Origin: Candidatus Microgenomates bacterium
GTDB taxonomy: Bacteria; Patescibacteriota; Microgenomatia; JACQLA01
Assembly (NCBI GenBank): GCA_016204255.1
Contig: JACQLA010000006.1
Location: forward strand, 3,038 to 67,037
Direction: 5' to 3'
Length of the DNA: 64,000 bases
A program made the position numbers and the translations under genes. The notes under the pieces are model-generated. The model did not search any database. It worked only from the letters and a program-made list of their open reading frames with translations, and had not been told where the DNA came from. This document shows, piece by piece, positions 29,901 through 59,468 of this stretch (its first letter is position 1; every line of letters begins with the position of its first letter).

Positions 29901-30934
29901 CTTAACCTCAATTCTATCATCTTTGCTTTTTGTTGGTAATCTTGCTCGATCAAATGTAAATCGGTAGCGGTAATAATTGTCTGCTGTTGAGGAATGATAT
30001 CAAAAACATATCGGCGATGCTTATGATCAAGTTCTGAAAATATATCATCCAACAGTAAAATTGGCCGCTCCCCGCATTTGCTGACCATAAATTCCAGCTC
30101 TCCCAATTTCAGCCATAAAACAGCTAAACGCTGTTCTCCTCTTGAGCCGTAAATTGCCAAATTTCGATTTTCAAACTCAAAAGAAAAGTCATCTCTTTGC
30201 GGACCAACTAGAGTCATTCCTGCCGCCACTTCTTCTTCGGCGTATTGAACTAGTCTTGCGGACGACATTAAGCTTTTATCATAAACAATTTTCCGTCCCG
30301 AATCACCATGATTATTTAAAAAATCTATAAACTCTTCTCTTTTTTGGGCCAAAACCGGCCCATTTTCCAAAAGAAGATCATCCCAATAAGCCATTTCCTC
30401 GGGCAAAACCCGCTCCCCTTCTTTTCTTTTAACTAAAAGCTTATTGCGCGTTCTTAGGGCCTTGGTGTAAGTTAAACTTGCTCGCCGGTATTCTTTATCA
30501 ATTTGTTCCAATACCGCATCTAAATAACCGCGGCGCGATGAGGGAGAACCGCCAATAAGTTCTAAGTCCTCGGGACTAAAAACTACCGCTTTTAAATTGC
30601 CAACAAAATCCAATCGCCGCCGGCCAATATTATTTAAAAGAAGTCGTTTTCCGATTACTTTCTCCCCGCCCAATTCACCCCGAGTTAAAGTTATCGCCAG
30701 AATCGCCTCTTCTGTTTTACCGGTTAAATGGGCCGTCTCGCAGAACCAGTTAACCATTTCTTTTTCTTTTTGGGCGCGGAAGCTTTTGGCTGAGGATAAA
30801 AGATAGATTGCCTCTAAAAGATTGGTTTTGCCGGCGGTGTTGGGACCAATAATAAGGTTTATTTCTGGAGAAAAATCAAAATGGGAGTTTTTATAACTGC
30901 GAAAGCCCGCAAGAGTAAGCGTTTTTAAGATCAT
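29897..30934 (-). CDS. recF: DNA replication and repair protein RecF
   Basis: 345 aa. Walker A GPNTAGKTNLLEAI, signature SRGEQR, Walker B LLLDDIFSELD. Confidence 0.85.
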   Translation of the reverse strand: MILKTLTLAGFRSYKNSHFDFSPEINLIIGPNTAGKTNLLEAIYLLSSAKSFRAQKEKEMVNWFCETAHLTGKTEEAILAITLTRGELGGEKVIGKRLLLNNIGRRRLDFVGNLKAVVFSPEDLELIGGSPSSRRGYLDAVLEQIDKEYRRASLTYTKALRTRNKLLVKRKEGERVLPEEMAYWDDLLLENGPVLAQKREEFIDFLNNHGDSGRKIVYDKSLMSSARLVQYAEEEVAAGMTLVGPQRDDFSFEFENRNLAIYGSRGEQRLAVLWLKLGELEFMVSKCGERPILLLDDIFSELDHKHRRYVFDIIPQQQTIITATDLHLIEQDYQQKAKMIELRLR

Positions 30935-31638
30935 TCATCATTATCTTCATTTATGACGGTTCCGATAAACTTCTTTCCCTTAAAAAAACTGTCTAGATTT
31001 TCAAAATTATCGCCTTTTAGAATTATAACCTTCAGTCCAATCTCATGCGCCAATTTTGTTGCCACCGGGTCAAAGGGAACATTTAACCCCGGGTCCCATT
31101 TATCACCAACAATTTGGTGAAAGTAGCGCCAACTCAGTTTCTCAATTGGTTTGGCTTCCGGATGCTTTTTAGGATCTTTTTCATAAACCATCGGTACGTC
31201 CGACATATTAACTAGAGTATTAATCTTATATTCTTTGGCCAAAACTGTAGCAATGTAATCTGTTGACCATCCTGGCTTCCAGCCAGCGGCCACCACCACC
31301 GGCTCGGTAGTAATTTCAACGTCGGAGGGGTCTTTAATGACCCGGATGTGGGCAATATCGCGGAAAATCGTTCGGATCAGATGAGCATTAAGGCGGGTCG
31401 CGTGAATCCCTAACCAGTCAATATCATCCCTGACTAAATTGCCGCCTATTTCTTGAGCGGCATTTTGATAAAAACGGGCAATTGATCCACCGCCAGTGAC
31501 AATAAAAAACCGCCAACCGGCGGTGACTTTTTGACGAATAAATTCATTAAACTTCTTAAGAAATTGAGTATTGATTCCTCCATTAGGGGCAATAAGAGAT
31601 CCTCCCAAAGATAAAACAACTGTTTCTTTTACAGACAT
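30931..31638 (-). CDS. pyrH: archaeal-type UMP kinase (amino-acid-kinase fold)
   Basis: 235 aa. LSLGGSLIAP, IVTGGGSIAR and GWKPGWSTD blocks resemble the short archaeal PyrH type. Confidence 0.7.
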   Translation of the reverse strand: MSVKETVVLSLGGSLIAPNGGINTQFLKKFNEFIRQKVTAGWRFFIVTGGGSIARFYQNAAQEIGGNLVRDDIDWLGIHATRLNAHLIRTIFRDIAHIRVIKDPSDVEITTEPVVVAAGWKPGWSTDYIATVLAKEYKINTLVNMSDVPMVYEKDPKKHPEAKPIEKLSWRYFHQIVGDKWDPGLNVPFDPVATKLAHEIGLKVIILKGDNFENLDSFFKGKKFIGTVINEDNDE

Positions 31639-31646
31639 GTTTACTT

Positions 31647-31673
31647 AAAAAACTGCTAGCCCCTACGGCTAGC
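31647..31673 (-). terminator. terminator-like hairpin plus U6 in the pyrH leader (candidate attenuator)
   Basis: Minus strand GCUAGCC-GUAGG-GGCUAGC (31673-31655), then AG UUUUUU (31652-31647). It ends 8 nt before the pyrH ATG (31638). Confidence 0.45.
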
Positions 31674-31839
31674 TTTAATGCGCAGCATTATACAAGCTGT
31701 AAACGAAGTATAATTCTCGCTTAACTATTTTAACACTTATTTCTATTCTGTCAAATATTTTTCCTAGAGAGGTCGGACCTCTTAAGGGAATTTGTTTTTT
31801 AAGGAGATCCGCTCCTAGGGCTTCTTTTAAAGCCTCTTT

Positions 31840-31932
31840 GTCATTTCGAAGGAGCGCTTAGCGACTGAGAAATCTAGCGAAGCGCACTGTCGTGCTAGAT
31901 TTCTCGCCCCGCTAAGCGGGGCTCGAAATGAC
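31840..31932 (+). repeat. nested-hairpin palindromic element, payload-less copy of the GIY-YIG cassette arms
   Basis: Layout: GTCATTTCGA - GGAGCGCTTAGCGACT - GAGAAATCT(AGC) - loop - (GCT)AGATTTCTC - GCCCCGC TAA GCGGGGC - TCGAAATGAC. Same architecture as 50039-50418. Confidence 0.65.
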
Positions 31933-31972: not shown

Positions 31973-32827
31973 TTACCTTTGGCACTTGGGACAGAAAAAG
32001 GTTCCGCGGCCGCCTAGGGAAATTCTTTTAACCACCCCGCCGCAACGATTAAAACAGACTTTACCAGTTTGCGCATAAACGCGGAAATGTTCCTGCATTG
32101 TCCCTTTCCCGCCCAAGGCGTTGACATAGGCGTTTTCGGATGAACCGCCGTATTTTATTCCCTCTTTTAAAACCAAAAGCAAACTTTCATAAAGTTTTTT
32201 AATTTGATCCTCATTAAGTTGATTTGCTAGTTTCTGCGGATGAATCCGGGATAAAAACAGCGCTTCATTGGCGTAAATATTCCCCACCCCGGCAATTTGA
32301 GATTGATCCATCAAAACAAGTTTCACCGGTTTTTTCTTTTTCAAAAGAATGCTTTTAAATTTTTCTAAAGTAAACTCTTTAGTAAACGGCTCGGGACCAA
32401 ACTCGGCCATAACTTTCAGTTTTTCAACTTCGTTAGTTTGAACAACCTTGATATAACCGAATTTCCGTACATCATTATAGAAAAGTTTTGATCCATTATT
32501 GAAGGTAAAAATAACATGAGTAGTACTGGCAGGAAGGGTTGCACCAGCAAAGGGTATTGGGTGACCAAAAGTTGCCAAATCACCATTTTTATGGAAAACC
32601 AGCTGCCCGGTGAGCTTTAAATGAACGATTAAACTTTTCCCGTTATCCAAGTCAAAGATCAAAATCTTGGCCCGGCGACGCAGATCTTTGATCTTTGTTC
32701 CTACAACATCCTTTTTCTCTCCCTGAAAAATCTTTGTTACTCTCACCTCCATATCGTCGATTTTTAAACCGGCGATTTTATTCTGCAAACCTAATCTTAT
32801 GGTTTCAACTTCCGGCAATTCAGGCAT
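31973..32827 (-). CDS. mutM: formamidopyrimidine-DNA glycosylase
   Basis: 284 aa. N-terminal MPELPEVE, H2TH region, C-terminal zinc finger CxxC...CPKCQ. Confidence 0.9.
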   Translation of the reverse strand: MPELPEVETIRLGLQNKIAGLKIDDMEVRVTKIFQGEKKDVVGTKIKDLRRRAKILIFDLDNGKSLIVHLKLTGQLVFHKNGDLATFGHPIPFAGATLPASTTHVIFTFNNGSKLFYNDVRKFGYIKVVQTNEVEKLKVMAEFGPEPFTKEFTLEKFKSILLKKKKPVKLVLMDQSQIAGVGNIYANEALFLSRIHPQKLANQLNEDQIKKLYESLLLVLKEGIKYGGSSENAYVNALGGKGTMQEHFRVYAQTGKVCFNRCGGVVKRISLGGRGTFFCPKCQR

Positions 32828-50038: not shown

Positions 50039-50418
50039 GTCATTGCGATCCTCCGATTTAATCGGGGGAGAAGCAATCATGATAGGAATATTAAATTATC
50101 TGCGGGTATAAATCTTCAAATTCGGGATTAGTTTTCTCTATTAACCTTAATTTTTTATCTCTTGATCCTGCCTTAATTTGTTTTTCCCTTTTAATAGCCT
50201 CGCAAATATCATTAAAGATCTCATAATAAACAAGCTTGTTTAAGTGGTATTTTGCAGAAAATCCCTTTATCAATTTATTCTTGTGCTGATAAATCCGTTT
50301 CACTAAATCATTTGTAACGCCAACGTAAAGAACTCTATTAGTTATATTGGTTAATATATAAACATAGGAGTGTATAGCCATCACAAGATTGCTTCGTCGC
50401 TACGCTCCTCGCAATGAC
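50039..50418 (-). mobile_element. GIY-YIG gene cassette bounded by nested inverted repeats (putative small mobile/selfish element)
   Basis: Outer arms GTCATTGCGA (50039-48) and TCGCAATGAC (50409-18). Inner arms GAAGCAATC (50070-78) and GATTGCTTC (50387-95). All are perfect inverted repeats, and the ORF occupies the loop. Confidence 0.45.
50091..50384 (-). CDS. GIY-YIG nuclease-family protein (COG2827/URI type)
   Basis: 97 aa. YVYILTNITNRVLYVGVTNDLVKRIYQH is the GIY-x10-YIG module, with a downstream conserved Arg and Glu (REKQIK). Confidence 0.85.
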   Translation of the reverse strand: MMAIHSYVYILTNITNRVLYVGVTNDLVKRIYQHKNKLIKGFSAKYHLNKLVYYEIFNDICEAIKREKQIKAGSRDKKLRLIEKTNPEFEDLYPQII

Positions 50419-58368: not shown

Positions 58369-58893
58369 TTAGTTTAGACTTTTTAAAACTTTTTCCAAAA
58401 CTTCGTTTGGTTTTAGTTGCGTAGTATCAATTGCCAAATCATAAAAATCTGGTTTGAAAAAATCATTACGACTATAAACTTTTCTCCATTTTGCAAAAAG
58501 ACTTGCTTCCCTTTTTGAAATCTCCGCTTTTGCCTGATCCAAAGAAACATTCTCCCGCTGAGCAAACCGCTTTATTCGTTCCGCATCCTCACAAACCAAA
58601 AGAATTTTAAAAACACCGGGGATTCCCTGAGTCATAAAGCCAGCTAGCCAACCTTCAACAATTATATTTCCGTCCCGTTCAATTTCGTGCCGCATCTGCT
58701 GATCAATTTTTTTTGTCAGTTCAACCGGTCGTAACTCAGCCGCAAAAAGCGGAACATTGTGCTCTTGACACCATTTGCGGAAAAAATCGCTGGCGGAATA
58801 AGACTTCCAATTTAATTCTTGTCTTAAGGCGTTAAAAAGAGAGGATTTTCCTGAGCAAATTAGGCCGGAGATGGTTATTGCATGATATTTCAC
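58369..58893 (-). CDS. archaeal-type cytidylate kinase-like P-loop kinase, paralog 1
   Basis: 174 aa. P-loop ITISGLICSGKSS, a LID-like region, YDLAIDT tail. Cytidylate_kin2-like by pattern. Confidence 0.6.
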   Translation of the reverse strand: MKYHAITISGLICSGKSSLFNALRQELNWKSYSASDFFRKWCQEHNVPLFAAELRPVELTKKIDQQMRHEIERDGNIIVEGWLAGFMTQGIPGVFKILLVCEDAERIKRFAQRENVSLDQAKAEISKREASLFAKWRKVYSRNDFFKPDFYDLAIDTTQLKPNEVLEKVLKSLN

Positions 58894-59468
58894 TTCTTAA
58901 ACCCTAAACTCTCAAGGGCAAGCCGTAAAGTTTCTTCCTGATTGTGGTTAAAGGTATTAATCACTAAATCAAAATAATCGGGATTAAAGGGAGTCCAGTC
59001 CGGATCGCCTTGGCTGTAAAGTCTTCGCCATTTTTCCAAATCCTTTTTTTCGCGGCTCTCGATATGTTCTTTCGCCTCCTCCACTGTGGTTCCGTTACGA
59101 TTAACAATTCTGTCAATCCGAATTGCTACCTGATCCTTTCCCGCATCCTCACAAACCAAAAGAATTTTAAAAACACCGGGGATTCCCTGAGCATCAAATC
59201 CGGCCAAATGTGTTTCGACAATTAAGTGATCTTCTTTATTTAATCTTTCTTTTAAGGCCTGGTCAAATTTTAAATCTTCTTCATCAGGCCGGCGATCCGT
59301 TTCATTTTCACTTAAGTTTAATTTCTTTCTTAGGGGCTCCCAAAAAATCTCTCCTCCCTCAAGTCGTTTCCAACCCAAAGCTTGTTCTAAATGTCTGGCT
59401 AATGTCGTTTTTCCCGTGCCGATTTTACTGGAAATGGCAATATTGCGATATTTGAGTTGGGCAATCAT
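58890..59468 (-). CDS. archaeal-type cytidylate kinase-like P-loop kinase, paralog 2
   Basis: 192 aa. P-loop IAISSKIGTGKTT and FDLVINT tail. Shares the QGIPGVFKILLVCEDA block with paralog 1. Confidence 0.6.
   Translation of the reverse strand: MIAQLKYRNIAISSKIGTGKTTLARHLEQALGWKRLEGGEIFWEPLRKKLNLSENETDRRPDEEDLKFDQALKERLNKEDHLIVETHLAGFDAQGIPGVFKILLVCEDAGKDQVAIRIDRIVNRNGTTVEEAKEHIESREKKDLEKWRRLYSQGDPDWTPFNPDYFDLVINTFNHNQEETLRLALESLGFKK

Follow-up and report, generated by a model that had tools for sequence, protein, structure and literature searches.

The element between mutM and pyrH

The window, namely the whole 64-kb stretch of DNA that was analysed, carries an Fpg/MutM gene (mutM, 31973-32827) and the gene of an archaeal-type UMP kinase (pyrH, 30931-31638), both on the minus strand. 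The spacer of 334 nt between the two genes contains an element of 93 nt at 31840-31932, where a first-pass annotation had also placed it. On the transcribed strand, the element begins 41 nt beyond the stop of mutM, and it is located upstream of pyrH. It reads GTCATTTCGA-A-GGAGCGCTTAGCGACT-GAGAAATCTAGC-GAAGCGCACTGTCGT-GCTAGATTTCTC-GCCCCGCTAAGCGGGGC-TCGAAATGAC; the modules and coordinates of the earlier layout were right, and one A after the first arm had been omitted. On the plus strand the element is preceded by ...CCTCTTT and followed by GGACGAA.... No target-site duplication is visible at these flanks.

As RNA, the element folds with -55.1 kcal/mol (z -6.4 against dinucleotide shuffles); the ssDNA fold of either strand has about -30 kcal/mol (z about -7). 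When all 93 nt are folded, the minimum-free-energy structure of both strands is four-way: the outer arms pair with each other, and so do the inner arms. The G+C content is 55% compared with 41% in the window, and the sequence is identical in 4 independent assemblies. The element at 31840-31932 is real and far beyond chance. Rfam has no family for it at the gathering thresholds, and permissive thresholds gave chance-level matches only in this region (E 0.6-3). Searches with PADLOC and PHROGs revealed no defence or phage family, and a literature search with the literal motif returned nothing relevant.

Two inverted copies of one hairpin unit

The most suitable description of the element is a hairpin unit of 35-38 nt that is present in two inverted copies, separated by a spacer of 17 nt, and not a single long hairpin around an empty loop. 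Each unit is composed of GTC, a 5-bp basal stem (ATTTC/GAAAT), a tandem G.A step, a variable apical hairpin, and a C followed by a pyrimidine. The units point outward, and therefore one "sense" unit lies on each DNA strand. The outer and inner arms of the first-pass annotation are the halves of each unit's 5-bp basal stem, as they appear when both strands are read.

The left unit (31840..31877, plus strand) resembles the Ssn-related motifs (SRM) discussed below and reads GTC, ATTTC, GA, AGGAGCGCTTAGCGACT, GA, GAAAT, C, TAG. It matches the covariance model with 31.1 bits (E 6.5e-4), and its apex belongs to a widespread AGGAGCG-N-AGCGACT subclass with conserved tandem G.A. As isolated ssDNA it folds weakly in the nearest-neighbour model (-3.4 kcal/mol, z 0.1); its fold depends on G.A pairs and a GNA-type loop, which are not scored by this model. 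Mini-hairpins with a GNA loop, such as d(GCGAAGC), are the basis for expecting extra stability of apices with G.A pairs and a short GC stem. The apex of the left unit, with its G.A steps and short GC stem, is probably more stable than the model reports.

The spacer between the units (31878..31894) is CGAAGCGCACTGTCGTG, or 23 nt when counted from AATC to GATT. Neither end of the ssn gene resident in the window resembles it, and no gene remnant was found in it. The right unit (31895..31932, minus strand) is also SRM-like and reads GTC, ATTTC, GA, GCCCCGC-TTA-GCGGGGC, GA, GAAAT, C, TAG, its minus-strand apex being also written GCCCCGCTTAGCGGGGC. The covariance-model match is 37.1 bits (E 5e-5), for a unit that was itself in the seed alignment. 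As ssDNA, the right unit forms a local hairpin of -11.7 kcal/mol (z -3.6).

The gene-bearing copy at 50039-50418

The window contains four perfect matches of the motif GTCATTKCGA and no more, arranged as the inverted pairs 31840/31923 and 50039/50409. The pattern GTCATT-K-C...G-M-AATC also has exactly four matches there, which form two outward-facing pairs. Moreover, a covariance model built from 57 diverse units detected exactly four units in the window with the filters off (E <= 0.03), and the next match had an E-value of 2.2. The copy density is low, with two doublets (four units) in 64 kb.

The second pair encloses a single-domain GIY-YIG nuclease gene, assigned by its sequence to the Ssn family (50091..50384, minus strand; 96-97 aa; PF01541 at 1.2e-16). 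The unit 5' of this ssn-like gene (50383..50418, minus strand) reads GTCATTGCGA-GGAGCGTAGCGAC-GAAGCAATC-TTG, has a G:C-type basal stem and matches the model with 34.1 bits; an identical unit flanks an ssn homologue in a Roizmanbacteria genome. The unit 3' of the gene (50039..50082, plus strand; GTCATTGCGA-TCCTCCGATTTAATCGGGGGA-GAAGCAATC-ATG) has a covariance-model match of 22 bits and forms a local ssDNA hairpin of -9.6 kcal/mol (z -2.5).

Direct comparison of the short element with 50039-50418 bore out the same module order that had been described for the two. The G to T change in the outer arm, with C to A in its partner, is indeed compensatory. The stem of the cassette units is ATTGC/GCAAT (G:C type) and that of the short element is ATTTC/GAAAT (T:A type). 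The two changes are therefore one base-pair change, from G:C to T:A, which is seen four times because each element has two units of the same type. The statement that the inner arms differ at several positions holds for ungapped comparison only; when a 1-nt indel is allowed, a single matching substitution is left (GCAAT versus GAAAT). The inner arms had also been reported as self-complementary within each copy, and the cross-arm complementarity is perfect in both window elements. BLAST gave no alignment between the short and the long copy, as indels interrupt the similarity.

The GIY-YIG protein and the Ssn family

The protein encoded at 50091-50384 matches PF01541 alone. An ungapped alignment of 90 residues with the ssnA locus of N. 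gonorrhoeae shows 49% identity (blastp E 9e-31, tblastn 2e-20), and the canonical NTS copies around the gene were confirmed at that locus. The residues Y9, Y20 and E67 are spaced like the catalytic Y6, Y17 and E64 that were mutated in PMC11893778, where E < 1e-10 is the criterion for Ssn homology. A search of solved structures gave weak GIY-YIG matches and coiled-coil noise only; for example, the UPF0213 protein BH0048 (PDB 1zg2) matched with an E-value of 0.043. As judged from sequence, the protein is a member of the Ssn family, and this family is the presumptive enzyme class for these hairpins.

The Ssn proteins were described by Chenal et al. (Nat Commun 2025; PMC11893778) as single-domain GIY-YIG nucleases of ~94 aa (CDD cd10448). 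They bind a hairpin repeat in ssDNA only and cut a few nucleotides 5' of GTC; dsDNA and RNA are not substrates (PMC11893778). Binding and cutting were shown for the enzymes of Neisseria and Wolbachia (PMC11893778). The repeat is called NTS in Neisseria (CGTCATTCCCGCGMAVGCGGGAATCYRG) and SRM elsewhere; cutting depends most on the three bases upstream of the palindrome, and binding depends most on the C directly after it (PMC11893778). The ssn genes are often flanked by the repeats, and both cross-reactivity and strict specificity were reported among the homologues (PMC11893778). A later literature search found no follow-up work on Ssn.

The ssn gene nearest to the short element is 18 kb away, inside the outward-facing pair of the same kind. 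It is the only ssn gene in the 64-kb window and has flanks of the G:C type; none with T:A-type flanks is present there. No second locus of the same Ssn protein was found, since all 10 contigs that carry it represent one locus.

Related loci and their association with ssn

About 2 Mb of related loci were collected. The window protein led to 80 genome loci in CPR groups, Bacteroidota, Ignavibacteriota, Proteobacteria, Planctomycetota, Melainabacteria and others, and most ssn genes of these loci have GTCATTGCGA...GCAATC units against both ends, facing outward as in the window. Among the units that adjoin 91 ssn-like genes from many phyla, the outward orientation was counted 89 times and the inward orientation 22 times. 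Outward units stand on both sides of 31 of the 91 genes (with one stem type in 27 of the 31) and on one side only of 21 more. For example, the Smithella homologue, which is 57% identical, is flanked by exact NTS-type units that also face outward. In the collected loci, units were more numerous than in mononucleotide shuffles (392 versus 48, and 349 versus 66). The family is tied to GIY-YIG genes and is not a generic terminator family, which was an explanation that the first-pass annotation had left room for.

The type of the short element was searched as GTCATTTCGA-N15-21-GAGAAATC, which gave 31 loci in IMG/VR and at least 120 loci in JGI metagenomes. Units of the T:A type flank the ssn genes of two of the collected loci (L185 and L156) and adjoin ssn in two others (L174 and L142). 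The 31 IMG/VR contigs, which are classed as viral (L005-L035), carry up to 7 units of the T:A type per contig, and the stretches examined of these contigs contain no ssn gene.

One record (L036; NZ_CP119142.1, 1881119-1882588) is listed in PLSDB as a "plasmid" of N. gonorrhoeae. Its length of 2.17 Mb shows that it is the chromosome. The nearest ATG upstream of ssnA in this record lies in another reading frame, and the gene may be frameshifted or may start elsewhere; the NTS next to the gene face inward.

Doublets as recurrent units

The gaps of outward-facing pairs in the collected loci are distributed bimodally: gaps of 0-60 nt (most often 22 nt) are gene-less, gaps of 288-506 nt hold an ssn gene, and few lie between. 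In the about 2 Mb of loci, 127 gene-less pairs with a gap of at most 40 nt and 35 ssn-enclosing pairs were found. The short element is indeed a gene-less version of the architecture around the GIY-YIG gene, and this architecture is widespread both with the gene and without it. The window element, with its gap of 23 nt and length of 93 nt, is typical of the gene-less pairs. Identical doublets, including the spacer, recur at several places on one contig and sometimes form arrays (L016, L018/L024, L057 and L096). Three doublets of 87 nt are repeated at a period of 97 nt in L057 (2546-2826), and L016 (13585-14024) has a doublet array with a period of 201 nt. In the right flanks of L016 and L027, the doublets adjoin a 7-nt tandem repeat (CTGCATT). 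The tandem arrays form mosaic intergenic blocks reminiscent of BIMEs and NIMEs.

REPINs and BIMEs are inverted REP doublets that form hairpins and are tied to RAYT transposases. The doublets described here resemble REPINs in that two short hairpin repeats are inverted around a short spacer (about 60-120 nt in total), are intergenic and can fold as one long hairpin in ssDNA; moreover, one enzyme gene per family stands between the repeats, and identical doublets recur within a genome. They differ in that the enzyme is a GIY-YIG nuclease instead of an HUH/Y1 transposase, and in that doublets of mixed type are common. No HUH/Y1 (RAYT) gene was found between the repeats, and the enclosed gene was a GIY-YIG nuclease in every case examined. 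To our knowledge, Ssn has no reported strand-transfer activity. The NIME segments of Neisseria are repeat blocks of 50-150 bp. The likeness to dRS3 and NIME is that repeat pairs bracket short intergenic segments and form mosaics, here in L016 and L057; in contrast to NIMEs, an unconserved spacer of only about 20 nt separates the units here. The dRS3 is the palindromic core of NTS, and the analogy of REP, BIME and IS200-IS605 was also drawn in the same paper (PMC11893778).

Determinants of the SRM and the published pattern

All four window units have GTC directly 5' of the palindrome, which is the cleavage determinant in PMC11893778, and C directly 3' of it; both units of the short element read AAT-C-T at this end. 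Among 659 distinct units, a pyrimidine is present at position -1 in 91% and at position +1 in 95%. The palindrome is also hairpin-forming, as the basal stem ATTTC/GAAAT continues into the apical stem.

The published SRM pattern, HGTCWYN(0-2)YYVSBRHN(0-5)WNVSBRGN(0-2)RNCYNB, had 0 matches in the window. In a positive control, the Neisseria locus gave 6 NTS and the Smithella locus gave 2 matches; of the ~700 units of the longer class found here, the pattern catches only 19. The determinants are present in this class; the pattern misses it because the hairpins exceed the permitted length. Surveys with this pattern would therefore undercount a common longer class, GTCATTGCGA...GCAATC and its stem variants.

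The units share several features with NTS and SRM, including GTC, a palindrome that starts with ATT and ends with AAT, and C plus a pyrimidine, as in the NTS. They are also intergenic, flank a single-domain GIY-YIG gene of ~95 aa, and vary in stem sequence between enzyme/site pairs. However, the hairpin is 32-40 nt long here compared with about 28 nt, and has a tandem G.A step and a separate apical hairpin. Outward is the prevailing orientation of the units around ssn, in contrast to the inward one at the Neisseria locus examined, and the host here is a CPR bacterium (Candidatus Microgenomates). A tight gene-less doublet was not found described in the main text of PMC11893778.

Covariation within the units

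Covariation was analysed with GTCATT and AATC as the only anchors, so that two inner stem positions were left free. Complementarity at these two positions within the single unit was found in 206 of 351 and 267 of 361 distinct units, where 1/16 is expected by chance. Five types of basal stem, each with its own complement, were found (ATTGC, ATTAC, ATTCT, ATTCC and ATTTC). Beyond the basal stem, GA/GA is the most frequent step (319 of 659 units). In 49 of 51 units the two bases that follow the G.A step as the first apical pair are complementary, compared with 21 expected after column shuffling; the composition of this pair is CG in 21, GC in 18, AT in 7 and TA in 3. The alignment A1, in which the basal stem is paired by construction, has a covariation score of 0.325 compared with 0.154 in shuffles, and 0 of 500 shuffles scored as high. 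A fixed symmetric apical structure pairs only partly in A1, and a slide of -1 scores almost as well, because a class with a 1-nt bulge shifts the register.

Mixed stem types were found in 75 of the 127 gene-less pairs (59%), compared with 4 of the 31 gene-bearing cassettes. In such mixed pairs the outer and the inner arms are mismatched, whereas each local hairpin is intact. The earlier suggestion that the folded structure is under selection thus holds for the local hairpin of ~35 nt, which covaries within units, and fails for the long pairing of outer with outer and inner with inner arms. The apparent four-arm covariation arose because both units of each window element are of one type. Selection acts on the local hairpin of each unit. 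The further copies and the structural covariation that had been set as a test were both found, the latter for the local hairpin.

History of the mutM-pyrH spacer

In relatives whose MutM is 75-77% identical, the mutM-pyrH spacer is 69-115 nt long and has no unit. The syntenic relatives L038 and L039/L040 have a TTGACA/TAnAAT promoter directly after the mutM stop. The window keeps the pyrH promoter (TTGACA-16-TAAAAT, 31754-31727, minus strand). About 205 additional nt separate this promoter from the mutM stop in the window, and they consist of the doublet and small hairpins. The small hairpins were observed at 31760-31835, where the minus-strand reading has AGAGGT-CCG-ACCTCT, AGGAG-CGGAT-CTCCT and GGCTT-N6-AAGCC, as part of the ~205 nt absent from the relatives.

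The doublet fits a lineage-specific insertion at mutM-pyrH. The protein collection contained no relative closer than 77% MutM identity and hence no clean empty site for comparison; as the relatives are distant, the insertion boundaries are imprecise and loss in the relatives is possible. In a presence/absence check within the species, all contigs with identical MutM carry the identical element or break inside it.

The leader of pyrH was also compared. A G+C-rich hairpin followed by a T-run is located in the window at 31655-31673 (minus strand), between the pyrH promoter (31727-31754) and the start codon. The same arrangement of promoter, hairpin and T-run, with different hairpin sequences, is present in L038 (2060-2128) and L039 (3380-3494), and looks like a conserved leader terminator (attenuator) of the UMP kinase gene.

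Interpretation and alternative explanations

These observations indicate that the element is very probably a gene-less, REPIN-like inverted doublet of Ssn-related motifs, that is, of SRM or NTS-like hairpin repeats. The locus would become single-stranded during replication, repair or the entry of transforming DNA, and an Ssn enzyme of matching specificity would then bind the hairpin in the exposed ssDNA. Nicks would follow immediately beyond the doublet: the top strand would be cut at the left end and the bottom strand at the right end. Like a REPIN, the doublet probably spreads in one piece, and it probably reached the mutM-pyrH spacer in a lineage-specific expansion. The substrate of the system in a CPR bacterium may be incoming or replicating ssDNA. 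An effect of the 3' hairpin on the mutM transcript would be secondary at most. Cleavage of the mutM-pyrH copy and its mobility are both inferred.

The mutM-pyrH copy is a fairly ordinary instance of a known repeat family, and is neither a new RNA nor a new gene cassette. A conspicuous palindrome in a CPR (Microgenomates) genome can thus be assigned to the Ssn/SRM system described in 2025. Modestly new are the abundant longer hairpin class missed by the published search pattern, and the tight doublets, with or without a gene, as a regular form of these repeats. The gene-less doublets share the architecture of the ssn flanks, and make the idea of a past or present mobile Ssn/SRM system more directly testable. 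A wider proposal is speculative, and we would put it forward only tentatively: the outward-facing SRM doublets might be the non-autonomous units, and the ssn-bearing doublets the autonomous units, of a GIY-YIG-driven, hairpin-directed ssDNA mobile element. Such an element would be spread over many phyla, CPR bacteria among them, and would correspond functionally to REPIN/RAYT; the mutM-pyrH copy would be one recent insertion.

The doublet might also have arisen by deletion, like a MITE, from an ssn cassette that lost its gene and is mobilised in trans. This origin is possible, though we consider it doubtful; the first-pass annotation had also named the empty form of the element, which may apply instead. 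In favour of a deletion, gene-bearing and gene-less pairs have one and the same outward-facing architecture, and their gaps fall into two classes. Moreover, the spacer of one collected doublet (L138, 428-529), TCATAAATGGCTAAAAATTATAA, resembles the fused start-codon and stop regions of a cassette. However, the spacer of 17-23 nt in the window element is not similar to either end of the resident ssn, its T:A stem type differs from the G:C type of the resident cassette, and no target-site duplication is visible, although inverted ends are present. The excess of mixed types among gene-less pairs (59%, compared with 4 of 31 cassettes) is fitted at least equally well by independent assembly of the doublets from single units. 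In the L138 spacer itself, ATGGCT is as in the start of the window ssn and TTATAA is as in the stop region, and this particular doublet may be a deletion derivative.

A role at the RNA level is unlikely, namely that the element terminates the mutM transcript or stabilises its 3' end and insulates it from the pyrH promoter. A start 41 nt past the stop of mutM on the transcribed strand, the energy of -55 kcal/mol as RNA, and the location upstream of a strong promoter-like pyrH site (TTGACA-16-TAAAAT at 31754-31727) would suit such a role. However, the element has no U-tract, the minus strand continuing with AAAGAGGC, and a terminator scan calls other sites and not the element. The relatives manage without it, and Ssn is inactive on RNA (PMC11893778). 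Both orientations of the repeat occur, the unpaired GTC and C are conserved, and the family tracks ssn genes, all of which speak against such a role.

Still less probable is a single folded molecule, such as a long hairpin or cloverleaf in RNA or in an extruded cruciform, in which the outer-outer and inner-inner stems are selected; we regard this as very improbable. The minimum-free-energy fold of the whole 93 nt has exactly this four-way structure on both strands, and the cross-arm complementarity is perfect in both window elements. However, two inverted copies of one unit give this complementarity automatically, mixed stem types with intact local hairpins were seen in 75 of the 127 pairs without a gene and in 4 of the 31 cassettes, and Rfam has no match. 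A chance palindrome or an assembly artefact can practically be dismissed: short-read contigs do tend to break at the element, but it is identical in 4 independent assemblies, has z-scores of about -6 to -7 against shuffles, and belongs to a unit type found at more than 150 loci in public collections.

Two minor observations concern the assemblies and the rest of the window. Among the short-read Logan contigs, L004 ends inside the first unit of the short element, and L243-L246 start about 33 nt before the ssn start, inside the 5' unit; these contig ends indicate that assemblies tend to break at these repeats. The window also has two direct repeats of 64 nt at 58581-58644 and 59141-59204, which are 91% identical, 560 nt apart and unrelated to the element.
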